Position numbers and translations under genes: made by a program. A stretch of 64,000 nt of DNA from Marsupella aquatica (Eukaryota; Plantae; Marchantiophyta): the NCBI GenBank assembly GCA_973895155.1, contig OZ316892.1, forward strand, positions 15,616,861 to 15,680,860, written 5' to 3'. Shown here one piece after another: positions 11,594 to 44,139 of the stretch. Each line of letters starts with the position of its first letter. Position 1 is the first letter of the stretch. The notes below the pieces were generated by a model. The model was not told where the DNA came from, did no database searches, and was given only the letters and a program-made list of their open reading frames with translations.

Positions 11594-14500
11594 CAAGATA
11601 TTCCTAGTTGCAGGTCCTTTCCTCTTGATAGACTTTGTTACAACATCTCCATTTAGAGAAACGCTTCTCTCCAAGTCAAACTCAGCAACATTGGAGAGTA
11701 GCATATTCATCGCATCCTCAAATAGCTTCGGGGAACTTGCCTGATCAGCTGAATGGAAAGCCAATTCCCATATTGTTGGACCTCTCCCTCTATTCAATCC
11801 TTTTCGATTTGTTGTATATGGTGCAACCCTGAGATACAGCTCTATTTTGATCCATTGCACATGCCTCGAAGAGCCCAATTAACCTTTTTTTCATTACCCA
11901 CATTTTCATTCTTGCGTGAACTGACTCTGATCCTAAACATTTTGGAATCCTAGCGCCTTCTTCAACACTTTTGTTCTGGAACGACACAGTACAAAATGTA
12001 GTGAGCATGCGCAAAAGATACTAGCACCAGGCGCTAGACAAAAACTTTGGAAAATCATCAAAATTATTATGTAATCATATGTTTGTCAAAATAAAAGATT
12101 CAAATCAGGTCAGTCGATGAGAATCAATTACATTATTTGGATATTGTGTTCAGGAATTGAATGTTCAGGAATGTCAACAGATACTTGAACTTCTACAAGG
12201 GAGAATGACTTGCATATTACTAGCACTAGCACCAGGTGCTACTACTCACCAAGAAAATAAAATTTCCCCACTGCCTCCAACTCACAACCCACCACAATAT
12301 CCAACACTGAAGCATTCAAAGCTTTCCAGGGAAGCAGTTACCAACTGCCACCATAGGCCAATCTCTGTTGAAAGTCGGTAGGCCTCAACAAATGTTGGTG
12401 CGTTATGTAATTTATCCCATAGCATTTGATGTTTTGCTTGCTTCTCTTCCAACAATGAAACGCTTGGTAAAAATGAAAAGTGTTCGTCCGCTCCCGTCAG
12501 GATTTGGGTGCCCTCCAAAAGAAACATTTTGGACTACTAACCATCCGGCTTGGGCATTGTCTGCCATAAAGCCATGAACAGTTGGGTTATCTAACCCATC
12601 CTCTTTGGATACCTCAATCATTAATCTCCAAGCCTTCTTGAAGGACTCTGTATCTTTAGCTTTTAGCTTGCAAGCGAATATTGTACACAATGCGCGGTAG
12701 TTGTGATCGTAAACGTGTGAGCTGAAAGTCACCCAATCCTTGGTCATTTGTTTCATAACATCGAAGCTTACCCAAGCACCTTCTAGACTCCCACCAGGTT
12801 GCATTTGCCACAAAAGATCCACCCCAACCCATGGCCTTTGGAACTTGTCATCTTGAGGCCTGTCTTCTTGAGACCCCTGACCTGGAAAGATGTACCTCTG
12901 GAGAAAAGGCATGTTGATATTCTTTTGATATTGAACTAGAAAATCCAACTCTCCATGATGACCTTTCTGGTCCTGCCTAACACTCCTGAAAAGAGATGCA
13001 AACTTTTGTGGAGTAGAAACTACCATTAGAGACTGAAAAATTTGTGTTTCTTTGATATCTTGAATATCACCCAAGTTGTCATGTGCACAAAGATTGTACA
13101 AAAGATTTTGTCGCTACATTTTTAATTAAGGCAGGCGTCGAAGATGGATTACCTTCCAATTTTTTTTATGACATCTTCATCCACCTTTTTTGCACTTTGT
13201 GAAAATACCTTACAACAAGGATGGTAGTGCAAAATGTGACTACGAGTATCTGAGTCAAGCAAAACTTGAGGATACATATAAAACAGTCTTGTAGAGCATG
13301 ACTCTACACAAAAAGGAATCTGCTGGCAATAATGACAAACAACTCCACCCTGCTCAATGAACGATCCAACACGGTGTGGCCCTCCAAGTTTAGGGGTACC
13401 TGTCTAGGCCTTTGCATTACTCCTCTTCTTTTGGCGGAAATAGTCACAAGTTTTATTCCTGCACTCAATAAATCCAGTACATGTAACTTTACCAAATTCC
13501 CAGTATTTCTTGGGCTGCACGTTTGCAGTAGTAGGAAAAATTCTAGTCTAGATGTAGCAATCCCTGGAGGGGGATTTCACCGTGACAGCAAACAACAAAC
13601 AACAAAACTCATACCAGCAAATTTGCAACAAAAAATGACACTAAATGAAAACAATATATATACCAAATATCAGTCAAACCCTGAAGTCAAGGTTTTATTT
13701 TGCACCTTACGCAAAGTTTAATTTGTCCAATAACGAGCAGTCTCTTTCAAAAAAAACTTGTTGCGCAAAAAGCAATTTCACATTATATTGGACCTCAAGC
13801 GGCCCTTGACTACATTTATACTAGCACCTGACGCTAGAGGGAAAACATTTTGGCTACAGAATCCCAAGGATTATGATAGACATATCAAAAAGCCTAATCA
13901 ACACCTCTTTGAACTACCGGCTAGAGTAATAGCATCGGGCGCTACCCAATAGGGGATGCCATGAAGTTCTTCTTTTGTGTCGCTCTCCCCAAAGAGAGGT
14001 GAAGAAAACAAGAAAGAACTAAAGACCAGATCCAAAACCACTCGACTCTGAGGCCAATTCAGAACCGCTACTTTCAGATCTATCTGTGGACTCCGCTTCG
14101 TCGTCTACATACTTGGATTTTGCAATGTCATCTATGAAGTGGTTCTGCAAAAACTTCCTATCTGAGCCTCTCCTGAGCCTAAGACCTTTACTCTCCCAAG
14201 TAAGCGTCCTGACTGAATCTGCCTGTTGTGCCGCCTTTTCAGCATAAGAGGGAAGGACAAATGGCTTCTCCAGGGTCTGTACAACGTTCCTAGAGACGTT
14301 CCTTTGAAGTTAAAAATGCCTCCAAAGATTCCACTCTGACCTGACAAGTTGAACTGGAGTTCTTTAGTCAAAGTCGGGAAATTGATGGAACTTTCTAGAC
14401 AAAAGGGAGTAGAGGAGATCTTTGGCAAAAAATATAAAATGAGAGAAAGAAAGCTAAAGATAATTACTCTTCTGACTCTTCACTGTCCTCATCTCTAGAT

Positions 14501-14633
14501 CCAATGTCCATCACATTCTTTGACACCTCATCAACTTTAGATTGTTGAGAACCATTGCCGCCCTCATCCTCGTCTTCAGAATCAAAATTTAGAATAGCAT
14601 GGAGCTTGTCCTAAGTCGCGGAACTTGACTACA

Positions 14634-17600
14634 TGTCACGTCGTCGGCTTCGGCCTTAACTCAGACTTCAGCTTAGACGGGCACATCCCTTGTAAATTTG
14701 AGGGTTCGGGCAGGAAGGGAAGCACGTAATGCACCTTATTCTCGTAAACTAGCGCTAAGTGCGCATACTGCTAAATACGGACACCTCCTAGGTATGGTTT
14801 GTGTTCCGCCGCCGGAACGTACCTTAGTCGATAGCAGGATCGACCCCGGCTTAAGGGCTTCTAAGCCTTCGTTCTGTCCGCCTTCGATCCGGATTCGATG
14901 ATACAGGTCCTCAACCCGTGCTCGCAACCACTTACCTGCAGGCTGCACCCTGTGCACGTCTCGGGTAGTGCGTTCGGCCTGGCGCTGCCACCCCTATACG
15001 AGAAACCCACACACATACACGCGCACATGCATACAATCTCGATTTACATGAAGGAAAATGATGGGAAAGGATTTTACTACAAAGGGAACATATGCGTACA
15101 CTTAGTTGACCCGACAGCCCCGGAATGAACAGGTTCAAGGCCGAGGGTGCACACTACAACGGAGCCCGGCTCCGCACTCGCCCGACGAGCTTAGTCCTAC
15201 CCCCCCTTGGTACTCTTTCATTCCCAGAGGTCGGGACTCCCCGCACATACCGCGGATGTCCAACTCTAAAACTAAAACCCCCCCCCCTTGCCTCTACCAA
15301 GGGGTGCACTAAATACTAAGGGCCGAGGGACGGGGTGTCCTCTCGCCGAAGATTCGCTGACTAAGGTCCTAACTAAGCTAACAGTCAGGCCGAAAACGGC
15401 TGTGTCTTATTAGAAGATCCTAATCTACGCAGGCTGGACAGCATGGCAGCGCTGCTGTGCCTAAGGCAGGTGCCTGTCCCAAGAGCCTGACTAAGCTAGT
15501 CCTAATCCTAATCTATTCCTACTCCGCCGCTAATGCCTGGCACGCTTGCTAGAGCCGCCTGAATGGGAGCGGCCATCCCGCTGCCTTCGAAGCCTGTCAT
15601 TGTCCGCCTTGAGGAGCTGGACCTGGTCCAGCAGAGATTCGTTCTCTCGCCTCGTCGCGTCCGTCTCCTCTGCTACCTCCTGACATGCCTCTTCCAGCTG
15701 CTGGGCGTCGCTCGTCAATTTACCCGCCAGCTGGTCCTGCTTCTCGGCCTCGGTTTGGAGCCGCGCCACCTCGGCCTGCAGCGTGGCTATCTCCGCCGTG
15801 TCCCGCTGGGCCCGTTCCTCGGCCTCCTTCAGGTCTTTCTGCCAGGTGATAGTTTGATTCTTCAAACTGTCAATCTGGTTCCAGAGTCGTGTAATCTCGG
15901 CCTCGTTCCCAGCTTTGGCCTGTTCGGCTAGGGCGGTAAGAGTGTGCACCTTTGCTAACAACTCATCGGCGGCTGCAACCTTGGGTCGTAGTTGTCGAAG
16001 CTCTGCCTCTTGAGCCGCAACTTCGTTCTTTAGGTACACGGACTCCACCCGGTACCGCTCTATCCTCTAAAGGGCCTCTGACTGGGCCCGACCTGCCTTT
16101 ACTGCGGCAACCAACTCCTGATTGAAGAAACATGCTACCTTCCGGGCCATGAACTCCCCGGTATCCCGGGCAATTTGATGAGAGAAATCTCCCAAAAGCC
16201 CGTTCAGAAATGTACCCGGTACGAAGAGTTCCGGGTGGTCCAGGTTGTGCCTCTCCGGAGTTGGGCACGGGCAGACGTCAACACGCGCGGGGGCCGGGGC
16301 AGTGACGTCCAGCCCTGGGGACGTAACGTTGGAAGGGGCCAGAGCGTCCTCTTGTAGCAATGTCCGGTTCTCCGAAATAGCCACCGGTGGGTCTTTGGGA
16401 GAACCGGGCTCGAGTAAGACCTCCGCCGTACCGACTTCTGTACTTAGCCCGACTTGTTGGGTCGCATCAACGGTTGCGACAACCGACCCATCCGGTACCT
16501 TCTCGGTTACGACTACAGCTACTTGTGGAGGTGGGGTGGGTGAAGCTGGCGTGTCCGCTGGACTTCGGGCCTCGGGTTGGGGCCATCTCTCCAAGGCCGG
16601 GAAAACCCACCTAGCTGGGACCAGCTTTGTAATGTTGACACGGGGAAGGGTTTGTCGATCAAACCGAGCGTACCACTCAAGAATCATCTCGATGTGGCTA
16701 GCGAAATACGCCTTCCCACCAATGTACAGCGTCTTCCTTCGCCGCTCCATCTCTTCATGGAATTTCTTAGCGAAGTACGACGCCCACCTTCTAGGTCGAT
16801 AGTTCTCGACCTGGATAACCTGGGCGGCGGAGATCTCTCCCCGGGGTTCCATCATGTGGAGGGCGTACCTCTGGAACTCCAGTCGCTCAGCTATCTCCGG
16901 GATGAGACAGGTCCTCATCACGAACCCGTTGTCCACTGCTCCCTCTGAGGGAAAGCTTGAAGATTGGTACTTGGCTCCCTTGCCCCCGAGAGCCCGTGAT
17001 TCGACTCGATGGTCACCTTCGGGTAACCCGAAGATCATCCTGAGCCGTTCTTTCGTAAGGGACATACTCCTTCCCCGCAACCGAGTATGTTGACGCGCGT
17101 CGTCATAATTCCTGACGAACTCCGTCATGTCCTCCCCGTAGTACTTGCAAGTGTTCCAGGGGAGGGAGGCGAGGTGCTCGAATCCCTGAGTCTTCAGGTA
17201 CACCGCATGCTTGGGATGGAGGATGTTTTTGTGAACGTTTTCCCCCATGCGGTGCATTGTCACCTTGGCTACGGCTACCGTGGCCAACGGTAACCCGGAT
17301 GCAGTGGCGGATTCCTTCCTCTTCTTCCCCGTGACTGGCTCGGGGAAGGTGACACCTCCCCATCCTCCCGATCGGGCCTGGGTAGTGCCACTGCCGTTAG
17401 TAACGGGCCCGGGTCGGCCACGGTCACCATGTTGTCTGCCGGGGCCGCTCCTGGGGTCAGAGCAGGGGGTGGGGATGATATAGTGTCGGCCCCCTGAGCG
17501 CTTGTTCCTCTGGGCCGCCTGGTCAAGGGTGGGGTAGCCTCATCATCATCGCTAAGATCCATAGCGTTTATGATGGAGCGTACTTGTGCTGGCTGGGCGA

Positions 17601-18638
17601 TCGGTGGTGGGGTTTGGCTAGGCTGCGGCTGAGGCTGAAGCTGAAGCTGAGCCTGAGGTTGTATGGGTACGGGTACGGGTACGGGTACGGCTGAGTTGGT
17701 CATGTTGGTTGATGGCCGAGTTCCCCTGAAGCTCTGTAGGTGCTGGTAGAAGTTCTCCAAAGCGAGTGCAGACGACCTTGTCGAACGGGTAGTGCTGGAC
17801 TCGCTGTTGATGATAGCCCAAACCTGAGCAGGGATGTGGTCAAAGTGATGTCGTTGCAAGTCGATCGTACCCGGGATATTGAAGACCTCATCCGGAAGCC
17901 GAAGCAATGCTTCCCAGAACCTGATATATTTGTCTCCGTTGAAGAAGTACCCAGATACCTCTGCTGGTCGGTAAAGCTGGCTCTGAGACGGGTAGTCAAA
18001 GTTAAGGATGTAGTGGTGTCGTCCTGCTAGGCGGATGGCTCTCTCGTACTCGCATTCGATTTCGTATCGGCGCGGGTTGGCGTGTTTCAATGAGTCGGCC
18101 AAGTGCCTTCCGGTAGATAGGAACTGCGTCCAGAATCGAATGGCCGAGCTGGAGAGGATCGTGTGCGACATTCAAAGGAGATAGTAGTGGCGACTTAGAG
18201 CGTATGAGAGAGCTGGGGTCGAAGCTAGCGCGTGGACTGATGGACTGGTGCACTACAAAGGGTTGGCTCCCCTTTTATACCTTGAGGGCTTGTCGATCCC
18301 CCGACGTCTCCTCGACGCCCATAGGCTGAACCGCTCACGCTTGTGGTGTACCGGCCACTCCGCCGGTCTGAGTCAGCGCGTGTCAGTGGCCGCTTCCTTA
18401 AGTTCGTTATACGGACCCGAGGGAGGGGCCCCTCCACGCTCGTAACCCGGGTGTGCGAATAGCGACCCGCCGCCAGTCCGAACCTGAATTCCCCCTTATT
18501 GCCTAATGATGTCCTACCCATAATGATTACCTAAATACTGTCGTTATGCTAATAATAGCGGCCTAAGACACTCCTAACGCGCGTGCTAAGCGCAGTTAGA
18601 TCGAATCACTCATTAACCGCCGTACCGGCGGTGTCACA
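14634..18638 (-). repeat. 3' LTR (4005 bp)
   Basis: Near-identical to 24737-28730 (about 10 substitutions in the first 400 bp by eye); preceded on the minus strand by AAGCAGGGAGCTA. Confidence 0.96.
15530..18171 (-). pseudogene. LTR-internal accessory ORF (~880 codons reconstructed): N-terminal domain, P/Q-rich linker, plant-retroelement accessory domain, C-terminal coiled coil
   Basis: Pieces 18171-17275, 17287-16067 and 16048-15530. The 1-bp frameshift near 17330 is absent in the other LTR; the TAG at 16067-69 is in frame. GFEHLASLPW...EFVRNY...LRGRSMSLT.E.LR.IFGLP resembles Athila/Tat extra-ORF domains. Confidence 0.85.
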
Positions 18639-21600
18639 TAGCTCCCTGCTTAATTGTGAAGCGTCCTCGCAAACATCACTCTCGGCGTCGTCATCTTGAT
18701 GGTGGTACTTTTTTACACGATCGTAGCTGATTCGCGTGGGGAGTAAATCGCTGGCATAAGTCGCAAGCTCCAAAGATCCGTTACGGTAGATCTGATTGAC
18801 AAGGAAGGGCCCTAACCACCGGGTATGAAGCTTCCCTGGAAACTGCATGTACCTACTGTCATACAGAAGGACTAGATCACCTGCCACGACGTCGACCCTC
18901 CATAGTCCTTTGTCGTGCTGCTTCTTCGAAGTTGCCTGTATCTTCACGGCGTGTCGAGCTGCTAGTAGCCGTGCTTCTTCTAGGGCTTCAATCTGATAAG
19001 CTCGGTCTGACGAACTTTCAGGTTCGGGTAAGCGATCCCGAATGTTGACTCGTGGAGTGTGTACTTCAAACTCGACGGGCACCAACGAATGTTGGCCGAA
19101 CACAAGAAAGTACGGGCTGTGACTCGTAGTAATTTTGTAAGCGAGATTATACGAGTACACCGCTGAGTACAACTTATCATCCCAATCCGTTTTGTGCGCC
19201 GCTACCGTCTTGTTGAGGATTTTCCCAATGATACCATTGGCTCTCTCTATCATCCCGTTGGCCTTAGGATGATACGGGGTAGTCTTGCGGTGCTTGACTA
19301 GGTAACGCTTCGTAAGCTGGGCTATGGTGTCATTGAGGAAGTGGGTCCCACGGTCCCTTACCAATTCTAAGGGCGGGCCGAATCGGGTGAAAATCTGTTC
19401 GTATAAGAATCTGGCACTGGTTGCAGCGTCGTCCTTTACCGTAGCCCACGCTTTGACCCACTTGGTGGAGTAATCAATAGCTAGTAGGATGTACCTGCAT
19501 CTTCGCCTTCGGGTAACGGGAGTAAACGGCCCGATATAATCAATTCCCCATTTTTTGAATGGTGCCAATGGAAGCACAGATGTGAGCGGGTGATGATGAG
19601 CCCGTCTCGGGGCCCCAGCCCGCTGACACAGGTCACAGCCCTTAATGAAGCGCTGTACATCCCGATGCAACGTCGGCCACCAATACCCCGAGTCCAGAAT
19701 CTTTCGGGCTGTCGTGACCGCCGCGAAATGGCCTCCAGCTTCTTCTTCATGCAAGGCCCGCATCACGATAAGCGTCTCCTTATACTCCAAGCAGCGTCGT
19801 AACTTCCCATTAACTCCTTCCTTATGTAGGTGACCCTGTACCATGACATAAGGCCCGGCTTTCCGTAGAAACACAGCGGCGGCTTCCTGATTGATGCCGT
19901 CAGGGATGCGGCCTGTCAAGAGGAAGGTGATAATTGAGCCGTACCACGTTGGCGTCCCCACCCCTACGTGGAACAACTCCTCATCCGGAAAAATATCATC
20001 AATTGGCTGATCAACTGGTACGCCGTCCAGCCTTGAAAAGAAGTCGGCATTGAGGTGTGCCTTTCCGGGCCGAACCCGAACTTCGTAGTTAAATTCCTGG
20101 AGAAGTAGCACCCACCGGGCTATCCGTCCCGTCACGTCCGCTTTGTTGACCATGTACTTCAGGCTATCATGATCTGTGTGGAATATGACCTTGTAGCCTA
20201 GCAGATAGTGTCGAAACTTTTTACACGAGTAGATTATTCCCAGAGCTTCTCGATCAGTGGGGGAATAATTCTTTTTGGCTGTGAATAATTGACGGCTAGT
20301 GAAGTAGATGGGGTGGTCGCGTCCGTTCTCATCAAGCTGACTGAGCACGGATCCAATATAGAACCTGACACATCGACATACACGTGGAACTCCTTATTCC
20401 AGTCCAAAGTAACCATGATAGGTGCGGTGGTGAGTCTTTTACGGAGTTCTTCGAAAGCAATCCGTCTCCTGGGTGTCTCCTCGATCACCGCATCCTTTTT
20501 CATCATCTCAGTCAAGGGCAACGCTATTTTAGCAAAGTCTTTAATAAACCGACGGTAATACCCTACACAGCCCAAGAAGGATCGTACCGCTTTTTGATCT
20601 ACGAGAAACACCACCGCCATCCAGGCCGCGACCTTCTCTTGGTCCACCTGGATACCCCGTTTGGACACACGATGCCCGAGTAATACTCCCTCCTCTACCC
20701 CGAAAAAACATTTAGCGGGATGTAGTTTGAGGTTAACCTCTCGGCATCATTGCAATGTTCATCTTAGGTGTTCGGGGTGCATGGCAACGGTTCCAAAGAT
20801 GGCAAAGTCATCGATAAATATCTCCAGAAATTCCCGTAGGAAATCGTGGAAGATATTCATCATAAGGCGCTGAAACATGGCCGGGGCGTTACACAGACCG
20901 AAAGGCATCCTCCGAAATGCGAAAGTCCCCCACTCCGTAGTGAAAGTTGTTTTGAGCTGATCCGTGAGGCGAATCCAGATTTGGTTATAACCTGAATACC
21001 CGTCAAGAAATGTATAGATTTTATTTCGGGCTACCATATCTAGAACCATATCCGTGAATGGTAATGGGTAATGGTCTTTTCGGGTTGCGTCGTTCAGCTT
21101 ACGGTAGTCCTGACAAATATGAATCTTAGGTTTTCCATCCGTACCTCCCTTCTTTGGTACAATGACAATGGGAGAGACCCAGTCGCTGGCCATTACCGGG
21201 TAGATGATATCGGCGGCGAGGAGACGATCAATTTCCTCCTTCACTAAGATGGAGTACCTCGGGTTCATGCGACGTTGTCGCTACCGTACCGCATGGGCTC
21301 CTAGGTTCAGATCGATCGTGTGTTCTCCCAACTCGGGGGAGACGCCTGTTAAATCATGATGACTCCATGCAAACACATCTTCATATTCCTTGAGCAAAGC
21401 TTGGATGGATTTTTCAGCCTCCCCTGTCAGAGCGTGGCCCAGGTTAAAAGATTTGTCCATCCCAATGGTGTACTTCCGGTAGTGCTCCTTCCTGATGACT
21501 TCAACCTGGTTTCGCAGGCTCGGGTCCAGGCTCGCATCAAGCTCAGCTAACCGAACTCCTCCGTACATGGGTGGAACCGGGATTGGTCTCGGGATTGGAG

Positions 21601-24600
21601 TTTCTTCCTCCAATTGCGGAATGGACGGATCCCATGAGACTCGTTTCTTATGTCTCGGTCTCGAGTTTTCGGCCTCGGGCGGTTGTTGGGCTGGTTTGTG
21701 GTCACGAGGCTCTGCAACGGTAGAAGCAGCCTCGGCTCCCTGCTTAGCTGGAGCCATGTCCTCTGTCTCGACGAGTTGTTCGTGTGTTTCCTCATCCCCG
21801 GCAGTAGATGTGCTTGGGGTGGACTCAATGGCAGCCCTTGGGTAGTTTAGGAGATGTGTTTTGCGGGTTGCTTCAACTTCAAAGACATCTTCCTCGGACA
21901 GGGACGAGATGAGTTCAATCATATTGAGTTCCTCTTCCTCCGAGGTCTCCGAATCATATTCCTCGGGTCCTTGTGGGGTTTCTCCCTGATAATTGTCCAT
22001 TGCCCATGATACCCGTACGGTGGGTTCCCCGAACCGTAGCTCCTTCTTTCCCCAATCCGTGACTACGCGGCCACCATACAGCCACGGCCTGCCCAGAAGA
22101 ACCGGGTAAGAGGAGGGACGAACCGGCCTCATGACTAGGAAGTTGAGATAGAACTCCACCCCTCCCACCAGGGTGAGCACTCGTGTGAGCGTGCCTAATG
22201 GGAGGACCCTTGCCCCGTTTGCTAATCTGATGGCTCGGGCTGTGGGTTCATACGTGAGGTATCCTAACTTGACTGACGTTTCTTCAGTCATGATGTTGAC
22301 TCCCGCTCCTCCGTCTACAAGAACCATCTTGGTGGTACAATTATTAATTTCGATCGAGATGTCCGGCGCTCCAAGGTCCTCACATATCATGTTGCAGTCC
22401 GCGATCCCAACTCGGGGTAGTCTCCTCCTCCGGCAACCCATGAGCAACTCCCTTAGTTGCCGTCTGTACTGTGGGTTGTTCAGCAGCAGTTGCCCCACCG
22501 TCGCTGTAACCGGGCAACTCTTCACGTCTTCCTTAATATCATAGTTCTCCTTTTTATCCTCTTTCGGCTGCAGCTTGGCTTCCTCTTGCTTTTCTTGCTC
22601 TTCTTGCTCCTGGCGCCGGGCGGTCTCGGCTGCTTTGATGTCCTTATCGATTGCCTTCTGGTATTCCCGAGCTTTGTAAGCCTCCAACTGTTTCTTTACC
22701 AGTTCTTCGATGCGGGGGTAGAATAGCTTTGGGTCGTCCCGTCGGTAGTCATCGTCCTTTTCTGGGGGTATATCTATCGCTGGCTGCACCGGAGTAGTAT
22801 CTTGCTTTTTCCTTCGTTTCTCCTCCGTCTTCTCTTCCTTCCGTTTGGCCCTTGTCGACACTCGGTAGCACTCGGCCTCATCCAATGGATCAGGGTGCTC
22901 TGCTACGTCCACCAAATTCACCCACTCGGTGTTGTCATCTTGCCATTCTACAGCAATCATTTGGACGACTGCATCGCTCGTGGCCGGTCCAGCCTGGGCC
23001 GGTCTAGCTACGCTCGTTCGAGCAGCGATTACCAACGGACAGTTGGCTGTGGAATGAGCCTCCGTTTTGCAGACTTGACATAGTGGGGTGCCTCGGCCAT
23101 CTCCCTGATGTCTTGGTTTGGTGCATTCCCTCGCAAAGTGTCTTGGCTTTTCACAGTTATAACAAACCGGGGATCGCCAAATCCCTGGCTTAGGAGGGAT
23201 GCTCGGGTTACTGATAACCTGGAAACTCCGGCCATTGTTTGGGTAGGGGTACGCAGTTCTACCCGCTAAATTACGCGGACCTACCATTGAAATCTGGTAC
23301 ACGGAATCAGGAGGGTCCTCAAAGAAATACTCCGTGGACTCCGATTCGGGACCCGGGTTGTCAACATCATCCAGCTCTACTTGGTGAACTCGGTTCTTCC
23401 ACCTTGGGCATTCCTGCACCACATGGCCGGATTGGAAGCACTTTGAACACCACGCATGGGCTTGAATCTCAGATGGCTTCTTCTTCTCCACCGGCTTTTC
23501 AGCAAGATGTACTGACAGTGCTTTGAGTCGATCCGTGATTTTGTTCAGCTTGTCTGCTTCGGCAGCCTTTGGATCTGGTATCGTTCTTCGCGCCCGGGGT
23601 TTGATCTTCCCCTCCTTCTTCACTCGTCTCTTCTTCTTTTTGCTCCGGGTTTCGCTCTCCGAGTCACTTCCTGATGAACTGGAGGTAGAGGATCCGGTGC
23701 TTGAAGCTGAATCCAAACTGGATTCCGTCTACGAGCTGGATGAGGTCGAACGATGTTTCTTCTTCTTCTTGCGTTTCTTCTTCCTCTCATCGTCCGATTC
23801 GGAGTTAATGTCACTGAAGGTCTCATACTTACCCTTCTTGCGGCGTGCTCGTTGGCTCTGCCGGGAGTTATAGGTGGACTCCCGGTAAGTTTCGGCGCAC
23901 GCTATGGCCGCCTGCATTGAAATTGGATTATTCTGGCATACCCAGAATTGCATATTCGTGGGCAAACCATGAAGGAACCATGTAAGCTGGAGCGCGTCTC
24001 CCGGCCTGGGCCGGATCTTGGCCGCAAGTTTATGAAACTTCTGAATGAACTTCCGCAGGGACTCCTTTCCCATGCGAAGCTGGCCAATCTTTAATAGAGA
24101 ATGTTGTTCTGATCCAATGGCACAAAACTCCTGCAGCAATGCAGCTTGGAATTGTGCCCATGTAGTCCCGGGTGGCAACGTGTTGTACCATGGACGAGCT
24201 TCTCCCCGCATCACTCCCGGGAGGACGGTTAGTTTAATAGCGTCTTCCCCATTAGCTTTAGCAGTGGCTTCAAACTCATCCAACCATTCATCTGGATCAT
24301 CCCCATGATGCCCCTTGAAAGGTCGATAATGAAATAGCGATCGTTGCGATATTTGTGGAGGAGCTTGAGCAGCGCGGGCCATCGGTGGAGCGGCTGCCAT
24401 AGGTGGTGGTGGAGGTGGCGGTGGTGGTGGTGGTGGCGGAGGAACCGCAACAGGACCGGTCGAACCGGACCCCGAAGGTCCTGGGGGTATGTTCATACGT
24501 CGGGGCGATTGCGAGTCCTTCGAGCCCGAAGAATCAGAACTTGTCGTGGTTGCACTTTCTCGTTCGCTGGTCAATCTCCTCAAGTAAGCTGCTTGAGAAC

Positions 24601-24613
24601 GAGTGACGGGCAT
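18606..24613 (-). pseudogene. gag-pol polyprotein (three CCHC knuckles, protease LVDGG, RT FIDD, RNase H, integrase HHCC/DDE/GPF), broken by in-frame stops and a frameshift
   Basis: ORFs 24613-23729, 23716-21281 and 21268-20759 share a frame across single stops; frameshift near 20360; the integrase stop lies 33 nt inside the 3' LTR. Confidence 0.95.
18639..18651 (-). other. Polypurine tract region
   Basis: AAGCAGGGAGCTA immediately 5' of the 3' LTR TG on the minus strand. Confidence 0.75.
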
Positions 24614-24706
24614 TTACTCATATAAATGCGATGGTTAGTACTACGTCCTGAAGTATCCTGCCTAGGTGAATACGCACATGTCTCCCCTCTACGATATGCA
24701 GAGTGG

Positions 24707-24724
24707 CCCCTCCATCTAGCGCCA
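24707..24724 (-). other. Primer-binding site, probably tRNA-Asn
   Basis: TGGCGCTAGATGGAGGGG, 12 nt from the LTR end; near-complementary to the plant tRNA-Asn(GUU) 3' end as recalled (CCCCTCCTTCTAGCGCCA), one mismatch. Confidence 0.75.
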
Positions 24725-25633
24725 AAACAAAGGCTATGTCACGTCGTCGGCTTCGGCCTTAACTCAGACTTCAGCTTAGATGGGCACATCCCTCGTAAAT
24801 CTGAGGGTTCGGGCAGGAAGGGAAGCACGTAATGCACCTTATTCTCGTAAACTAGCGCTAAGTGCGCATACTGCTAAATACGGACACCTCCTAGGTATGG
24901 TTTGTGTTCCGCCGCCGGAACGTACCTTAGTTGATAGCAGGATCGACCCCGGCTTAAGGGCTTCTAAGCCTTCGTTCTATCCGCCTTCCATCCGGATTCG
25001 ATGATACAGGTCCTCAACCCGTGCTTGCAACCACTTACCCGCAGGCTGCACCCTGTGCACGTCTCGGGTAGTGCGTTCGGCCTGGCGCTGCCACCCATAT
25101 ACGACAAACCCACACACATACACGCGCACATGCATACAATCTCGATTTACATGAAGGAAAATGATGGGAAAGGATTTTACTACAAAGGGAACATATGCGT
25201 ACACTTAGTTGACCCGACAGCCCCGGAATGAACAGGTTCAAGGCCGAGGGTGCACACTACAACGGAGCCCGGCTCCGCACTCGCCCGGCGAGCTTAGTCC
25301 TACCCCCCCCCTTGGTACTCTTTCATTCCCAGAGGTCGGGACTCCCCGCACATACCGCGGATGTCCAACTCTAAAACTAAAACCCCCCCCCTTGCCTCTA
25401 CCGAGGGGTGCACTAAATACTAAGGGCCGAGGGACGGGGTGTCCTCTCGCCGAAGATTCGCTGACTAAGGTCCTAACTAAGCTAACAGTCAGGCCGAAAA
25501 CGGCTGTGTCTTATTAGAAGATCCTAATCTACGCAGGCTGGACAGCATGGCAGCGCTGCTGTGCCTAAGGCAGGTGCCTGTCCCAAGAGCCTGACTAAGC
25601 TAGTCCTAATCCTAATCTATTCCTACTCCGCCG

Positions 25634-28263
25634 CTAATGCCTGGCACGCTTGCCAGAGCCGCCTGAATGGGAGCGGCCATCCCGCTGCCTTCGAAGCCTG
25701 TCATTGTCCGCCTTGAGGAGCTGGACCTGGTCCAGCAGAGATTCATTCTCTCGCCTCGCCGCGTCCGTCTCCTCTGCTGCCTCCTGACATGCCTCTTCCA
25801 GCTGCTGGGCGTCGCTCGTCAGTTTACCCGCCAGCTGGTCCTGCTTCTCGGCCTCGGTTTGGAGCCGCGCCACCTCCGCCTGCAGCGTGGCTATCTCCAC
25901 CGTGTCCCGCTGGACCCGTTCCTCGGCCTCCTCCAGGTCTTTCTGCCAGGTGACAGTTTGATTCTTCAAACTGTCAATCTGGTTCCGGAGTCGTGTAATC
26001 TCGGCCTCGTTCCCAGCTTTGGCCTGTTCGGCTAGGGCGGTAAGAGCGTGCGCCTTTGCTAACAACTCATCGGCGGTTGCAACCTTGGGTCGTAGTTGCC
26101 GAAGCTCAGCCTCTTGAGCTGCAAGTTCATTCTTTAGGTACACGGACTCCACCCGGTACCGCTCTATCCTCTAAAGGGCCTCTGACTGGGCCCGACCTGC
26201 CTTTACTACGGCAACCAACTCTTGATTGAAGAAACAGGCTACCTTCCGGGCCATGAACTCCCCGGTATCCCGGGCAATTTGATGAGAGAATCTCCCAGAA
26301 GCCCGTTCAGAAATGTACCCGGTACGAAGAGTTCCGGGTGGTCCAGGTTGTGCCTCTCCGGAGTTGGGCACGGGCAGACGTCAACACGCGCGGGGGCCGG
26401 GGCAGTGACGTCCAGCCCTGGGGACGTAACGTTGGAAGGGGCTGGAGCGTCCTCTTGTAGCAATGTCCGGTTCTCCGAAATAGCCACCGGTGGGTCTTTG
26501 GGAGAACCGGGCTCGGGTAAGACCTCCGCCGTACCGACTTCTGTACTTAGCCCGGCTTGTTGGGTCGCATCAACGGTTGCGACAACCGACCCATCCGGTA
26601 CCTCCTCGGTTACGACTACAGCTACTTGTGGAGGTGGGGTGGGTGAAGCTGGCGTGTCCGCTGGACTTCGGGCCTCAGGTTGGGGCCGTCTCTCCAAGGC
26701 TGGGAAAACCCACCTAGCTGGGACCAGCTTTGTAATGTTGACACGGGGAAGGGTTCGTCGATCAAACCGAGCGTACCACTCAAGAATCATCTCGATGTGG
26801 CTAGCGAAATACGCCTTCCCGCCAATGTACAGCGTCTTCCTTCGCCGCTCCATCTCTTCATGGAATTTCTTAGCGAAGTACTACGCCCACCTCCTAGGTT
26901 GATAGTTCTCGACCTGGATAACCTGGGCGGCGGAGATCTCTCCCCGAGGTTCCATCATGTGGAGGGCGTACCTCTGGAACTCCATTCGCTCAGCTATCTC
27001 CGGGATGAGACAGGTCCTCATCACGAACCCATTGTCCACTGCTCCCTCTGAGGGAAAGCTTGAAGATTGGTACTTGGCTCCCTTGCCCCCGGGAGCCCGT
27101 GATTCGACTCGATGGTCACCTTCGGGTAACCCAAAGATCATCCTGAGCCGTTCTTCCGTGAGGGACATACTCCTTCCCCGCAACCGAGTATGTTGACGCA
27201 CGTCATCATAATTCCTGACGAACTCCGTCATGTCCTCCCCGTAGTACCTGCAAGTGTTCTAGGGGAGGGAGGCGAGGTGCTCGAATCCCTGAGTCTTCAG
27301 GTACACCGCATGCTTGGGATGGAGGATGTTTTTGTGAACATTTTCCCCCATGTGGTGCATCGTCACCTTGGCTACGGCTACCATGGCCAACGGTAACCCG
27401 GATGCAGTGGCGGATTCCTTCCTCTTCTTCCCCCGTGACTGGCTCGAGGAAGGTGACACCTCCCCATCCTCCCGATCGGGCCTGGGTAGTGCCATTGCCG
27501 TTAGTAACGGGCCCGGGTCGGCCACGGTCACCATGTTGTCTGCCGGGGCCGCTTCTGGGGTCAGAGCAGGGGGTGGGGACGATATAGTGTCGGCCCCCTG
27601 AGCGCTTGTTCCTCTGGGCCGCCTGGTCAAGGGTGGGGTAGCCTCGTCGTCATCGCTAAGATCCACAGCGTTGATGACGGAGCGTACTTGTGCTGGCTAG
27701 GCGATCGGTGGTGGGGTTTGGCTAGGCTGCGGCTGAGGCTGAAGCTGAAGCTGAGCCTGAGGTTGTATGGGTACGGGTACGGCTGAGTTGGTCATGTTGG
27801 TTGATGGCCGAGTTCCCCTGAAGCTCTGTAGGTGCTGGTAGAAGTTCTCCGAAGCGAGTGCAGACGACCTTGTCGAACAGGTAGTGCTGGACTCGCTGTT
27901 GATGATAGCCCAAACCTGAGCAGGGATGTGGTCGAAGTGATGTCGTTGCAAGTCGATCGTACCCGGGATATTGAAGACCTCGTCCAGAAGCCGAAGCAAT
28001 GCTTCCCAGAACCCGATATATTTGTCTCCTTTGAAGAAGTACCCAGATACCTCTACTGGTTGGTAAAGCTCGCTCTAAGACGGGTAGTCAAAGTTAAGGA
28101 TATAGTGGTGTCGTCCTGCTAGGCGGATGGCTCTCTCGTACTCGCGTTCGATTTCGTATCGGCGCGGGTTGGCGTGTTTCAATGAGTCAGCCAAGTGCCT
28201 TCCGGTAGATAGGAACTGCGTCCAGAATTGAATGGCGGAGCTGGAGAGGATCGTGTGCGACAT
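25634..28263 (-). pseudogene. Second copy of the LTR-internal accessory ORF
   Basis: Colinear with 15530-18171, with different private stops and frameshifts. Confidence 0.85.
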
Positions 28264-28364
28264 TCAGAGGAGATAGTAGTGGCGACTTAGAGCGAACGAG
28301 AGAGCTGGGGTCGAAGCTGGCGCGTGGACTGATGGACTGGTGCACTACAAAGGGTTGGCTCCCC

Positions 28365-28371
28365 TTTTATA
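28365..28371 (-). promoter_or_regulatory. TATA box of the 5' LTR (equivalent at 18273-18279)
   Basis: GGTATAAAAGGGG about 360 bp from the LTR start and about 100 nt upstream of the LTR-ORF ATG. Confidence 0.65.
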
Positions 28372-28789
28372 CCTTGAGGGCTTGTCGATCCCCCGACGTC
28401 TCCTCGACGCCCATAGGCTGAACCGCTCACGCTTGTGGTGTATCGGCCACTCCGCCGGTCTGAGTCAGCGCGTGTGAGTGGCCGCTTCCTTAAGTTCGTT
28501 ATACGGACCCGAGGGAGGGGCCCCTCCACGCTCGTAACCTGGGTGTGCGAATAGTGACCCGCCGCCAGTCCGAACCTGAATTCCCCCTTATTGCCTAATG
28601 ATGTCCTACCCATAATGATTACCTAAATACTGTCGTTATGCTAATAATAGCGGCCTAAGACACTCCTAACGCGCGTACTAAGCGCAGTTAGATCGAATCA
28701 CTCATTAACCGCCGTACTGGCGGCGTCACACTACATTAACACTTAGCTCCAGCATTGCTGACTCCAACGCCAAGCTCCCTTATGGTTCA

Positions 28790-37893: not shown

Positions 37894-38385
37894 TCGATCC
37901 ATGTCGACTACCTTCCCCGACAGATGCCTTCTTGTTTACGTCTATTTTGGCGCAATACATTATTTGATTGGATTTAAGTATAACTTAGTAGCAGTTCCCG
38001 ACAGGACTACCGAGTCAGCTACAGCGGAATGGGACAGCCAGGACAGACGGCTTGTCAAGCTCGCGTGGGAGGAAGCTTCGGCATATTTCTCGCCGGAGAA
38101 GTTAACCCTTCCGTGCTACCCTATTGATACCTATCATGAAGAAATAGTGCCTCGCTGTGTAAAAGAGAGAAAAAGGAAAACTCTCAAATTTGTTGATGAT
38201 AGGGCAAAAGAAGCTCAATCAGATGAGAGTAGCTCGGTAGGAAGTGACAATCTCCAAACTCACCATGTAAGTATAAGATTATCAAGCTCCAGTTCCGAAG
38301 AGTAATGTTTGAATGAATTTACCTTCATTGCAGCTCAGGAGAGACCTGAGAAACCAGTGAATGAGGGCTGACTCCCCGAGCAGGA

Positions 38386-39111
38386 GTGAAAGAGGTGGGG
38401 CTTGCAAACAAAGGAGTGCCCGCACAACAACAACCATCCAAATTTTTGGCGATAGTGAAGAAGGCATTGGACCCCAAGGCGGACCAAAAAGAGGTCATAG
38501 TGACAATCGAGGATGTGCACTTGACGAGGGCACATTTAAAATGCTTTCGGCCAAAAAAATGGATCACTTGCGACGTCATCAATGCTTACATTGCTTTACT
38601 GGAACAAAGAGCACAAACCCTTCATAAACCCAAGGCCATGTTATTGCCAACACATTTTTACCAAGTGATGACAACTCCGGAATATAACTTCAACGCAGCG
38701 TTGGCATATTGGCGGGGCATTCAAATGTGGGAGCACGAGTACGTTTTAATCCCCGTCTACCGGCCAAAATACTGGGTACTAGTTGTGGTTGATACTGCCT
38801 TGCGGCAACTGCATTTACTTGATCCGCTTGTGCCCAAAGCACAGGATGGCACAGAAGTGTTCAAAGTAGCTCAGTTTCTTTCGGACCTCTCCATCTTGCG
38901 GGGTCGTACCTTGTTATGTCCATTAGAATGGCCACGCATTTACCGAGATAACATTCCAGGTCAAGGGGATGATTACAATTGTGGTGGATATATCATTATC
39001 TACATGGAGCATATTTTTGGAGGCGGCGTACTGAACTTTGACCCTGCACTTATAGACATCATGCGGCAAAAGATTGTTGTGGACCTTGTCTGCCAGACAA
39101 TTACCCTATAG
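38386..39111 (+). CDS. Ulp1/SENP-like (C48) SUMO protease domain, catalytic His apparently changed to Tyr
   Basis: LKCF.P..WITCDVINAYI.LL, THFYQ, YVLIPV....YWVLVVVD, LLDPL, Q..DYNCG.Y. TAC at 38770-72 stands where CAC (HW motif) is expected. Confidence 0.88.
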   Translation: MKEVGLANKGVPAQQQPSKFLAIVKKALDPKADQKEVIVTIEDVHLTRAHLKCFRPKKWITCDVINAYIALLEQRAQTLHKPKAMLLPTHFYQVMTTPEYNFNAALAYWRGIQMWEHEYVLIPVYRPKYWVLVVVDTALRQLHLLDPLVPKAQDGTEVFKVAQFLSDLSILRGRTLLCPLEWPRIYRDNIPGQGDDYNCGGYIIIYMEHIFGGGVLNFDPALIDIMRQKIVVDLVCQTITL

Positions 39112-39552: not shown

Positions 39553-42500
39553 CTTTCTGGTCAACAAGTGGTGACGGTACTAGAATGCCTGAATTGATAT
39601 CTTCTCACACAAGGATTTCTAGATTGTCAAATTGATAACTTCTCAATCAAATTTAGATAATTACTCATGGAAAGGAAACATTCCATTTCGACTACTGGAA
39701 CAGCAGGAGTTCAATGCTACCTAGAATCCATATGAGTAATTCAAATCAAAATCCAACTTCAAAGTATGATGGTAAAATTTCTAAGTATTAACTTCTCAAC
39801 AAGAGGAGTCTGTAGTTCTACTCACAACAGGTCAAGGCTCAACAGGAGCACCTGAGGAGGAGCTTCTATGCTTCCAACAGAAATTGAGAACTAAAGGAAA
39901 ATGGATCTGTGTTCCTCCTAACATGCACAAAGGAAGGATCCCAAAAGTCACAAAGTGTCATTTCCGGTTTTCGTGGAAGAAAAATTAACTGTCAATCAAA
40001 ATTCAGAAATGAGAACAAAGGAAAATCCGGAAATGGATGTAAGACAAAATCTGGATTTTGATTTCCGGTCCTACTTACTAAATCCGGATTTAGATCCTAG
40101 TCGGATCCGGAAATTCTAACTAACTAACTAAAAGCTACTAATCTACTGAGCATCATCAACTACATCTACTCTAACTGACTCATGTGTAAGATCAATTGGA
40201 CTAGCAGGTTTTAGAGGAGGAGATATAACTAAACTCGCAGTTGCCTCCAAGTCCTTCAAATCAAAAGGTGTTCCATGTGTTGGACTAATAGTTGAAGGTG
40301 ACACTGACGGAAAATGAAACTCAACCTTCTCAAATCCGGGTGGGGTGCCTCCTGCTTCATTTTGATCGCGCATCACCGGATATGTTCCGGATTCCGAAAT
40401 CCGGATTCTGGCAGGGGTCAACATGGACTTCGCATCCGAAATCACTATCTCCATCTGATCAAACGCTCCTGTGATCTTCTTGGCAAAGCGGTTATTGCAC
40501 TCAATAACCTTGACAAGGGTGCCTGGGTTGGCTGTCGCTAAATACTTATCTATCAGGTTGGCTTCCAACAAGCCAAGGGCTGGTACATGAATAGCCTCCT
40601 GAACACTGGTAACTACAGCATTCAGTTATTTCTGGATTTTCAGGTGTTCCTCCAACTTCTTCTGTGCAACATCCAACTGGTCCACCAAAGAGTCAATCTT
40701 CTATCTGTCCTTGAAGGCCTGATCCTCCAAGTCCCAGATCCGCTTCTTAGCCTGACTCTTAATCACCATGTCCAGAGTGGAAACGATGACAATTGGGCTG
40801 CAGTTGAGCATCTCAGCAACCGTCCCAACTAGATCCTCAAGTTGCTTCATTTTTCCGGTCGCACTTTCCATGAAAGTCCGGACATGCTCCAACTCTGCTG
40901 ATGCCGTCCACTTCAAACTAGGGATCACGCCCGGAAGACTTCCTCTACTTTCCGGTCTCCGGATAGGTTTCGGATCTTCAACAGGATCCAGTTCCGGACT
41001 CTGCACAAATCTCTTCTGCGTCCTGAGAGGTCGCACTTCCAGAACCGGTTCTTCTTCTGATTCAGTCCCCTCAGACGGCTGTCGATCCGGATCTCCGAGT
41101 TGAGCCAACATGGCTTGATTCTCATACTCTTCCGCTACTTCATCTGTAAGAATTTGGTCCATCACGTAAATATTGGCTAGATAGCAAGAAAGGGATGTGG
41201 GGGTCTTCAAATGAAGATTTCGGACCTGGTTGGCTATAACTTCCTCCAAAACCTTGGCCCAGGAAATCTTCTTCTCCCCTATGTAAGAAGCAGCAATCGT
41301 ATTTCCAATCCGAATTGTAACTCGTCAAGGCTTGGCAGGGGAAAGAAGTGGTAGCAAAAAGGACAGAATGTCGTAAAACTCCTCATTACAGCACTGGGAC
41401 ACCTTCCAACCGTCCTTCGGATCCACTTCACCATCAAAATAGTTATCCGCAAATTCATTCTTAGAGGTCAGGAAACCTTCTCCCTTCAAAGGCACATCCA
41501 AAAGCAAAGAGATAACTGCCGCGGTCCACTTTTTCGGTTTGGCTTTGATCGAATCCGGAAATTCCAAAGCAAGGGTCGTGCGCTTTCGGACCTCCTTCAC
41601 GAATATTGCACTCTGGTATCCCCATGGCAACTCCATCAACTTTGCACAACCCATGGTCTCAAGGTTCTTTTGTAAACGGTCCTTCCGTGCCAAATCCGTG
41701 GGAATCTTCGGACGCAGTGGCTTTTCATTCACAATCACTGTCCGCTCCTTGGTCGTCCGCTTCGGTAGCGTCCGGATTCCGGATTTGTCCGGGGCAAAAT
41801 CCGGGTCCTTTCTCTTCACCATATTTAGGAGATGGAGAGGAAGAATCCAAATTAAACTCCTTTCACAAAATTCCGGAAATATCAAATCTGGAAATTGAAA
41901 TCAAATCTTCACTTCCCCACTCAATCGAACGATCACCCACTTCCCCCGTAACCAGTTCCTCACGACTAATGCCTCGAATCGGCAGCCTGGTTCGGCTCTA
42001 AGCTCTCCTGTGATTCCTTGCGAAGGATTTCTACAGCAGTTTGGTGGTGTGAGGAATGCTCGGTCTAGCGTGGTCTTAAGAACTCGGTCACCAACTTCCG
42101 GTCTCCGGTCGAACGTCAGACTTATGGTTTTAATATTCATTCTCCCACGCCTTCTCGCATGGCTCAACGGTGTCGTTACTTAAGAGATCCAAAAAAAGGT
42201 GCTATCTGGATATTTCCGGATGCGATATTGCAAAGTAGTTTGTTATGGTCTTTTCCGGTCAAAGTATACTCCGTTAACCACTAAAAGTTGAAAATTTTCA
42301 AATTTTTTTGTACTTTTTAATTTCATTATTTATAACTATGGTATCACATAACTCCCTCCCCAACCGGTGCAGTGCCCTCGCAAACCATCAAGAGGTGGAG
42401 TGATATTTCTTAACCCGAGATCCATTAACTCGAGTTAATAAAACTTTGCCTTGTAAATCCTCCAACTGTAATGAACCATTAGAAAATATCTCCCTTACCT

Positions 42501-42775
42501 TGTAAGGTCCAAGCCATCTGGTATGAAGCTTCCCTGGAAATAACATGTAACGATTATCAAAAAGCATAACCAAATCACCTGGTACAATCTTCACTTCTTT
42601 AAGCTTAGAATCATACCACTTTGCACGTCCCAATTGTTGTTTCTCGGTCTCAATCAAAGCATAATGGCGATCTTCTTCTAACTTCTCCAAATTTTGTAAC
42701 CTGATAGTCTGACTTGACTCCTCATCCAACCGAGTGGTGTCAGAAATCCGGTAAGTGGGTACTTCAAATTCCACA
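39553..42775 (-). mobile_element. 3' part of a second non-chromovirus Gypsy: integrase tail (42775-42388), PPT, and putative 3' LTR from 42348
   Basis: GDLVMLFDNRYMLFPGKLHTRWLGPY closely matches the integrase tail of the full element; GGGGAGGGAGTTA|TGTGATAC lies 40 nt after the stop. Confidence 0.85.
40143..41822 (-). pseudogene. Accessory ORF (~560 codons, frameshifted) downstream of the PPT of the second Gypsy
   Basis: MVKRKDP...LETMGCAKLMELPW...DPKDGW.V..C....L.FLLPLLSPAKP, followed by 41249-40701 and 40571-40143 with coiled-coil character. Confidence 0.75.
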
Positions 42776-44139
42776 CACAAAATATAGATGAGAGCGTCCT
42801 GTGGCATCTTGTGTGTGAACCATGACCCCTTTCTCATCTTTTTTTGGATTGCCTCAAACTTTACCATGTTTGCGCTATCAATGAGTGGTTTGTAGTGATC
42901 CAGATCACGCAACAAAATTTGGGAAATTCAAGAAGGCTCAACGACTGCTTGTCCAAGCCTGGATACAATGAGAGGTAATTAGCAGCGCCGGGCACAAAGA
43001 TCAGGGAATTGCCACTCTATGGTCCAACATATTTAGCCCAAAATCAATGAGAGCTATACAAGTAGTTAATGAATGTAACTTACTGGTTCACGGTGTGCAT
43101 CGTCGCCTTGAGCTCAACCAGAGAACCTCTATCGCCATTGAAATTGACGCAAATCACACAAGGATGATACTTCAAGTTGTTCGGATTCTCCCTGGTGACA
43201 ACTGACCAGGAGTACAATCACTGATTTTTGTCAAAGACACAAAACATTTTGTATTTTAGAATGTGGAATGTTGGATTTGCATCACACTCTTCCTTGAACT
43301 TCTCATTCTCTACGACTCAGATTGGATCCCAAGAGTCCTGGATCTCGCTTGTGCAGATTTGAGGAACCCCATCGGCATTGGCAGGCTGAACATAGAAAGG
43401 CATTCCAATGCGTGAGCTCGGGGGGGTCACTATATGGAGGGCCATACATCGCATGCGACGTTTTAGGGTTTGACCCCCCCTAACTTATAAGTGAAAAATA
43501 TTTTTTTGCGAAGCCCTTTCTTTCTTTAAATTTTGTCATTTTTATTAAAAAACCCCTAAAAACTTTAAAGAAAGTATTTTTTGCAATTAAATAGGCCTAT
43601 GTGTTCTTTAAAGTTGACCAGTCAATAAAACATGCCCTATGTGTTCTTCCACCAAACTTTGGAAGTCTTTCGCCACACCCATTTAAATGGGCCTATACTT
43701 TGTCACACGTGATGTGCCATTTCCGTGGAAGTGACCCCCCCCCCCCCGAGTGCGCAAGTTGTACCCTGTGACACAAAATGATCCTTTCAACTTGTCAATT
43801 GACGCGCTCTCTTTTTGCAATGTTTGAACAACCTCCATGGGGAGAAATCTACAAAGAGGAATTTGAGGAGGCTCCTTATCGAATCCTCAGAATTCCTTTC
43901 CAAACAATAACACATGCTTCAAGATTACCTCATCCATGGATAACCCTACGTTGCTGACTTCACCCCATGGCACCCTCCTTAGGGTCCATTCTTTCTCTTC
44001 TCAACCTCGAGAAGGGCTGCGTGGATTTAGCTTTGGAATTTGTTGAGGACGCAGTCGATCGGGTGACGCGACGGGTGTAGATTGAGCCAATGAACAAAGA
44101 CTGAGAGGACTTGGAATGACCACCATCAGCCTTCCCCAT
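42776..44139 (-). pseudogene. ParB/Srx-like accessory gene, copy A (3'-truncated, MITE-interrupted)
   Basis: SQSLFIGSIYTRRVTRS; FYVQP; SWDPI*V.ENEKF..EC.ANP; KMFCVFDKNQ*LYSW; DLDHYK..IDSAN..KF....KGSWFT.KMPQDAL.YILC, all aligning with 52471-53560. Confidence 0.8.
43417..43750. mobile_element. MITE with ~40-bp imperfect TIRs CTCGGGGGGGTCACT and 8-bp TSD
   Basis: Flanks TGCGTGAG / TGCGCAAG (both derivable from TGCGCGAG by CpG decay); removal restores GYNSRIGMPFYVQP. Confidence 0.85.

Follow-up and report, generated by a model that had tools for sequence, protein, structure and literature searches.

Plant retrotransposons can carry extra open reading frames (ORFs) besides the gag-pol polyprotein. 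REXdb classes these ORFs as lying 5′ or 3′ of the polyprotein, in elements with long terminal repeats (LTRs) of up to about 5 kb (PMC6317226). A review places the extra ORFs of plant retrotransposons in the internal region and calls the 3′ ones of Athila env-like (PMC7264820). Among Gypsy elements, REXdb contrasts the short Phygy and Selgy elements with the extra-ORF-bearing Athila/Ogre/Retand (OTA) group, whose extra ORFs include PMD-A, Athila ORF-1, and Transposase_32 (PMC6317226). Here, we analyze a 64-kb window, that is, the whole stretch of 64,000 nucleotides examined, from the liverwort Marsupella aquatica (contig OZ316892.1, positions 15,616,861 to 15,680,860). It holds a Ty3/gypsy element with an extra ORF of about 880 codons inside each of its two LTRs. 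In the mostly open-access literature that we covered, neither an LTR-encoded gene nor a VANC-like protein was reported for a plant retrotransposon.

The nearest described example of a gene inside an LTR is sag of mouse mammary tumor virus, which, like the ORF described here, is duplicated at each integration and is reported to be kept mostly in solo LTRs (490/527 contigs) (PMC4667437). Unlike our ORF, sag is retroviral, encodes an unrelated protein, and lies mostly in U3, a placement that we infer for the ORF. The grass elements Retrosat2 and RIRE3 resemble our element in their LTRs of >3 kb, an extra ORF (ORF0) under selection, and an excess of solo LTRs (PMC3485330). In contrast to our ORF, ORF0 lies upstream of gag-pol in a Tekay chromovirus, and we found no link between the two proteins. 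The closest likeness in structure is to VANC21 of VANDAL21 (PDB 9LNJ and 9LNK; PMC5735166), an accessory protein that is also encoded by a transposable element (TE), with a coiled-coil region and a core fold like the one predicted here. VANC21, however, belongs to a Mu-like VANDAL DNA transposon, described as dicot specific (PMC13547354), and is only about 10% identical to our protein. It binds a short motif in the noncoding DNA of its own family and brings about methylation loss (PMC5735166). The VANC domain is DUF1985, which resembles the PMD (bioRxiv 2024.09.27.615353; PMC13547354). MAIN and MAIL1, host proteins of the PMD fold, fall into the same structural group as our predicted core, but they promote TE silencing (PMC5418596; PMC13547354). 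The survey that described PMD-A forms in Gypsy covered angiosperms (PMC5418596).

An ORF inside each LTR of a decayed Gypsy element

The element occupies 14634 to 28730 (14.1 kb) of the minus strand, and its interior is decayed by stops and frameshifts. The 3′ LTR (14634 to 18637; 4,004 nt) and the 5′ LTR (24737 to 28730; 3,994 nt), both on the minus strand, have TG...CA ends and are 97.1% identical; 85 of the 100 substitutions between them are transitions. The element is flanked by a perfect target site duplication (TSD), CTACA, at 14629 to 14633 and 28731 to 28735. A primer binding site (PBS)-like sequence beginning with TGGCGCTAG, which we take to match tRNA-Asn, is found on the minus strand at 24707 to 24724 and starts 12 nt past the 5′ LTR. 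On the same strand, a weak polypurine tract (PPT)-like sequence, AAGCAGGGAG-CTA/TG (18638 to 18650; the slash marks the LTR limit), adjoins the 3′ LTR within the final integrase codons. The Ty3/gypsy structural set of TG...CA LTRs, TSD, PBS, and PPT is present, with the PPT weak and the PBS offset, and the LTR limits given in a preliminary description of this DNA held up. The two inner LTR limits are mirror images, GCTA/TG at 18638 to 18641 and CA/TAG at 24733 to 24736, as they are at 6570 and 7565 of a related locus, L006 (see below). The PBS offset of 12 nt exceeds the 0 to 5 nt of REXdb but resembles the 11 nt of L006. A scan of the LTR against Rfam gave 0 matches, no tRNA genes are present within the window, and the LTR itself shows neither an internal repeat nor another PPT like those of the clade.

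The interior has the gag-protease-reverse transcriptase-RNase H-integrase order of Ty3/gypsy elements, all on the minus strand: gag, zinc knuckle, and protease at 21281 to 24613 with a single internal stop; reverse transcriptase and the beginning of RNase H, broken, at 20234 to 21280; and RNase H and integrase at 18606 to 20393, without a chromodomain. It is a decayed non-chromovirus Gypsy retrotransposon, since Pfam finds no chromodomain and the LTR begins within the last integrase codons. Tat elements, including Ogre and Retand, are distinguished by an aRH domain; here, a single RNase H stands between reverse transcriptase and integrase. The polyprotein spans nearly the whole interior (gag-pol, 24613 to 18606; interior, 24736 to 18638), as in Phygy and Selgy, but a 14.1-kb element with an 880-codon ORF is not one of these short elements. 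As a non-chromovirus with an extra ORF and no aRH, the element is a candidate member of Athila. Like the OTA elements (PMC6317226), this is a non-chromovirus Gypsy with a 5-bp TSD, very long LTRs, and an extra ORF of a PMD-like group. Unlike them, it has the ORF inside the LTR, an almost purely gag-pol interior, and no aRH.

Each LTR contains the ORF in the sense direction, and both copies are broken. The 3′ copy (15530 to 18171, minus strand) spans 880.7 codons, with a frameshift near 17326 and a stop at 16067 to 16069. The 5′ copy (25634 to 28263, minus strand) spans 876.7 codons, with five stops and one frameshift. These coordinates confirm that the ORF lies wholly within the LTRs and is present twice. 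It had also been proposed that lesions in one LTR are mostly complemented by the other. This is true of six of the seven distinct breaks, which are private to one LTR; the seventh is common to both, and neither copy is intact. Because both LTRs share a stop, the parent element may have moved without a full-length ORF product.

The encoded protein has a 214-amino-acid core flanked by two linkers. The first, a Pro/Gln linker, joins it to an N-terminal part; the second leads to a coiled coil and a basic end. In the 3′ LTR, on the minus strand, the N-terminal part (about 125 amino acids; 17797 to 18171) has no match in Pfam but is conserved in two database homologs, P0167 and P0123. The core (16640 to 17281) is unbroken in the window and has a predicted PMD/DUF1985(VANC)-like fold. 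The coiled-coil-like C-terminal part (15533 to 16066) has a basic KRARH end. The LTR has a single TATA(A/T)A box (18274 to 18279), 108 nt upstream of the ATG of the ORF, and an 896-nt noncoding tail (14634 to 15529) follows the ORF. The LTR contains no canonical AATAAA poly(A) signal.

Selection on the ORF could be measured within the window. At 62612 to 64000, on the minus strand and cut by the window edge, lies the LTR end of a diverged relative (67% nucleotide identity) that carries the C-terminal part of the ORF. Its ORF ends at a matching distance from the LTR end, and blocks of the noncoding tail are conserved. There is no PBS behind it, so it is a 3′ LTR or a solo LTR. Over the 158 comparable codons, the ratio of nonsynonymous to synonymous substitution (dN/dS) is 0.16 to 0.43 for a kappa of 1 to 11.3, with an upper bootstrap bound of ≤0.62. 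We therefore find purifying selection where its absence would have spoken against a functional gene: the LTR-located ORF is real, and its C-terminal part is under selection. Between the two LTRs of the element, dN/dS is 0.66 (matched kappa; P = 0.06), which is compatible with neutral decay after insertion. Of the 85 transitions between the LTRs, 77 fall at CG or CHG sites, as in a methylated copy, and this mutational signature indicates that the element is a methylation target.

The LTR layout across the family and in related lineages

A HMMER search of 1.84 billion proteins with the ORF core gave 45 homologs. Ten were looked up, and 5 of these carry the name Calypogeia fissa. The core match P0123 shares its cluster with P0167, an unbroken 906-amino-acid homolog that is colinear with all three pieces of the ORF. 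The closest named integrases to that of the element also come from liverworts (Calypogeia, 67%; Riccia; Marchantia). As a query in word-based protein searches, the ORF gave no matches, and none of three window proteins turned up in an exact look-up. No locus was confirmed for the ORF core in metagenome contigs (38 pattern matches) or for the integrase in viral contigs (6 pattern matches).

We then considered integrase relatives in metagenome contigs, of which 241 were confirmed and 80 kept; L001 to L010 are the ten closest. In nine of the ten, a purine tract followed by TG is found no more than 150 nt from where the integrase ends, and a related ORF or fragment stands behind it in eight. The ORF is long and open in L002, L003, L007, L009, and L010 (299 to 853 codons) and fragmentary in L004, L005, and L008; the L001 contig stops too early. 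The exception is L006, whose related ORF is internal, with PPT/TG after the ORF and an LTR of about 1 kb; a second PPT-like copy, without TG, directly follows its integrase. In L003 and L004, the LTR start and the inverted complement of the LTR end that precedes the PBS agree at 9/9 and 9/10 bases, respectively, and a TGTGGGA motif occurs once per contig. L004 contains two LTR pieces without overlap, which puts its LTR at more than 2.2 kb. The L003 and L004 tails do not align with the DNA behind the ORF in any other locus, and therefore these LTRs cannot be closed by similarity. Several relatives carry the PBS TGGCGCCGCTGCC. In the remaining 70 loci, the motif after the integrase was seen in L029 and L062 only, with a pattern that also missed true cases.

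The ORFs behind the tract are related to ours. A profile built from six locus ORFs scores the core of our ORF at 16.2 bits, whereas the top score among 500 shuffles is 4.9, and a profile built without the loci detects L010 (E = 1e-10) and L006 (3e-7). The integrase of our element was placed in a tree together with those of 21 loci (out of the 80) and 10 proteins, 32 rows in total, all of them unclassified or from liverworts. The clade of our element is sister to a group spanning L002 to L009 (90/89 support); L010 is separate, and L006 lies outside, unplaced. Judging from these loci, the gene-in-LTR layout is common to several related lineages and extends beyond one family. It possibly arose once or twice.

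Two further sets of sequences show an ORF after the integrase. In the window itself, a second Gypsy remnant at about 40100 to 43000 (minus strand) has an integrase end, a purine tract with TGTGATAC at about 42347, and then an ORF (41900 to 40146) that is broken and strongly matches the locus-ORF profile. No LTR end was found for it, and BLASTP of our ORF core against this neighboring ORF was not significant. From its arrangement, this is probably another LTR-located gene. A distant Gypsy lineage with about 40% integrase identity (L023, L024, L028, L042 to L046, L051, L052, L054, L055, L065, and L067) has sense ORFs of 850 to 1,200 codons after the integrase, which combine a small helical domain with long coiled coils. 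For such ORFs of 850 to 1,200 codons in the distant ERZ loci, no LTR starts could be located.

We also asked how the family as a whole is built, summing contig depth from four of eight runs over one LTR and the interior; X1 and X2 are the deep runs. If members of the family had short LTRs with an internal ORF, depth over the ORF should drop. It does not: the ORF bins are not below the noncoding tail bins, depth falls at both LTR limits, and the family depth covers the whole LTR, ORF included. The median LTR depth is 5.6-fold (X1) and 4.5-fold (X2) that of the interior. Full-length elements alone would yield about 2-fold, which suggests many solo LTRs, although the summed depth of contigs is no measure of copy number. 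At the site of the shared stop, another letter is read in 460,064 of 460,896 depth units in X1 and in 429,720 of 433,815 in X2. With more than 99% of the depth lacking the stop, it belongs to this copy or its parent alone.

These results bear on whether the 4-kb repeat could have formed artefactually, through tandem duplication, recombination, or the nesting of two elements. The weak PPT and the PBS offset of 12 nt would fit such an origin. Against it stand the perfect TSD, an LTR without an internal repeat or second PPT of the clade's type, the family-wide depth over the LTR, the independent relative at 62612, and the boundary motifs shared by L001 and L006. An artefact is largely refuted, and we give it next to no weight.

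How could such a layout arise? The LTR begins at the end of the integrase and so contains the extra gene. Plus-strand priming would have shifted to a purine tract that precedes a 3′ extra ORF. The ORF would thereby have been absorbed into the LTR, and the former LTR would remain as the tail of about 0.9 kb, which is close in size to the LTR of about 1 kb in L006. We consider this origin by upstream priming likely. The extra gene would then be situated in U3, which from the layout we somewhat favor over R/U5. The TATA box of L004, 150 nt upstream of its LTR end, supports U3; the sole TATA box of our LTR, standing before the ORF, argues against it.

The position itself might carry no function. 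The gene could serve full-length elements, with its place in the LTR an accident of priming and the 5′ and solo copies silent passengers. This proposal concerns location and is compatible with either of the DNA-related functions discussed below. L006, which keeps a related ORF internal, fits it, as do the absence of a canonical poly(A) signal from the LTR, the methylation of the LTR copies, and their roughly neutral decay after insertion. But the layout is kept across lineages whose integrases are about 50% identical, despite 3 kb of extra duplicated DNA, and a TATA box precedes the ORF in every LTR. We regard a mere positional accident as somewhat unlikely.

Predicted fold and possible function of the protein

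An AF2 model of the core from 43 aligned sequences has a pLDDT of 94.8, compared to 31 for a single-sequence fold. The top Foldseek match is VANC21 bound to DNA, 9LNJ (probability, 0.97; TM, 0.55; E = 0.036), with all others at a TM of ≤0.19. VIA-align against 48,161 chains returned VANC21 (9LNK) at Z = 7.9, with a root mean square deviation of 4.4 over 200 of 214 residues, and a separate run gave Z = 7.7. This was the sole match at Z ≥ 5; the next was 2.4. A PDB sequence search with the core produced two weak, unrelated matches only. Two of the 43 core homologs match Transposase_32, a domain related to Athila ORF1 (PMC11728184). The preliminary description had guessed at a PMD- or Transposase_32-type domain. 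The fold match, the features of the ESM language model, and the two homologs support this guess and narrow it to a predicted VANC/DUF1985-like fold.

We slightly favor the view that the ORF encodes a nuclear, trans-acting anti-silencing or activating factor. This rests on the match to the VANC fold, the leads from ESM, the demethylating role of VANC21, and the methylation of the element. The ORF would be transcribed from the TATA box upstream of it. The protein would bind DNA via its core, oligomerize via the coiled coil, enter the nucleus via its basic ends, and keep the family's own copies active in trans. Every solo LTR would retain a copy of the ORF, raising the gene dose. Solo LTRs may then be self-contained cassettes that act in trans, as the preliminary description had suggested. 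A broader version, in which the LTRs of a radiation of bryophyte Gypsy elements encode a VANC-like anti-silencing factor with sequence specificity and solo LTRs still make this factor and so de-silence the family, is a tentative proposal that we think improbable as a whole. If it is true, solo-LTR formation, the host's main removal route, would become gene amplification. Such Gypsy genes could also have branched off early within the PMD/VANC fold.

The protein could instead act on RNA or particles, as an env-like, movement, or packaging protein or as a suppressor of RNA silencing. The naming of the Athila 3′ extra ORFs as env-like (PMC7264820) and the two Transposase_32 homologs point in this direction. 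We consider it very doubtful: the best fold match is a double-stranded DNA-binding protein, a viral fold library gave nothing credible for the core, and the protein lacks the hydrophobic transmembrane stretch (maximum 19-residue hydropathy, 1.13) that an env-like product would be expected to have.

A role on DNA or chromatin other than anti-silencing is a stronger contender, though we still judge it unlikely. The protein would steer integration, tether the cDNA complex, or simply transactivate the LTR, with silencing marks kept. Foamy virus Tas, for instance, is a transactivator of the LTR promoter. The same fold evidence applies to such a role, which also agrees with an integrase lacking a chromodomain, with our failure to find target motif arrays in the LTR, and with the clear methylation-type mutation pattern in this copy. 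On the other side, the sole structural match, VANC21, has a demonstrated anti-silencing role (PMC5735166), and an anti-silencing role has been proposed for TE-borne PMDs (PMC5418596; bioRxiv 2024.09.27.615353).

A number of findings weigh against an anti-silencing or activating factor encoded in the LTR. The fold match is moderate: E is 0.036, identity is 9 to 10%, and a Z below 8 may reflect a common arrangement. ESM places the ORF with PMD and DUF1985 clusters at 0.89, and values below 0.9 are leads only; Pfam gives no match for the core. The fold is shared with the silencing-promoting MAIN and MAIL1, so it does not indicate whether silencing would be lifted or promoted. The dN/dS values that show selection cover only the coiled-coil part, and the relative at 62612 used for them itself carries two stops. 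The stop shared by both LTRs means that the parent may have lacked a full-length product. The solo-LTR excess is subject to the limit on depth given above. With regard to the layout, the LTR starts of the relatives were placed by motifs, no relative has both LTRs side by side, and the profile built without the loci did not detect L002 and L003. CG/CHG mutation is lower in the noncoding LTR (17/353) than in the ORF (60/760), but not significantly so (P = 0.075). Finally, the targets of VANC21 are tandemly accumulated motifs of 8 to 9 bp (PMC5735166), and none was found in our LTR; its noncoding parts show no significant clustering of short target motifs, and their highest-ranking words did not exceed the level of control DNA.

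No function is settled for the extra ORFs of plant retrotransposons, and here one gains a predicted structural link to VANC; in the literature we covered, the demonstrated anti-silencing proteins are the VANCs of DNA transposons (PMC5735166). Its site in the LTR survives the recombination by which hosts delete such elements. Whether retrotransposons use VANC-like anti-silencing, and whether solo LTRs serve as protein-coding helpers, can now be tested. So can the question, left open in PMC5418596, of whether the PMD fold was first in Gypsy or in host genes. Annotation pipelines that seek extra ORFs solely between LTRs would overlook genes located as this one is.

Word counts and other features of the window

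In related loci, some words are abundant in noncoding LTR DNA. ATCCGGA/CCGG words are very frequent there in L004 (1 to 1394 and 7374 to 8050), L009, L003, L005, and L007, and pol of these loci is also dense in CCGG. The noncoding LTR of L004 has 26 of them, compared to 6.3 expected. ATCCGGA is enriched in L004 and L009, and comparably in L040, which lacks the ORF. L006 has AGCGCT words instead. From these counts, ATCCGGA/CCGG or AGCGCT words could be family-specific target motifs. A twice-found sequence, AGTATTTAG, resembles the VANC21 motif YAGTATTAY, and we treated it as chance.

Elsewhere in the window, two related transposase-like fragments (65% nucleotide identity) lie at 12412 to 13113 (minus strand) and 47993 to 48451 (plus strand); the one scanned had no Pfam match. 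An uninterrupted 330-amino-acid hydrophobic ORF at 58360 to 59454 (minus strand) has no Pfam match and is absent from the protein collection; by its sequence, it looks like a host membrane protein gene. An inverted repeat at 61347 to 62163, with 299-nt arms of 86% identity, resembles a miniature inverted-repeat transposable element. Between 30299 and 39111, there are tandem arrays with 169-nt, 44-nt, and approximately 40-nt units, and several plus-strand ORF fragments, one of them a Ulp1 protease (PF02902) at 38365 to 39111. Judging by this content, the stretch looks like a large DNA transposon.

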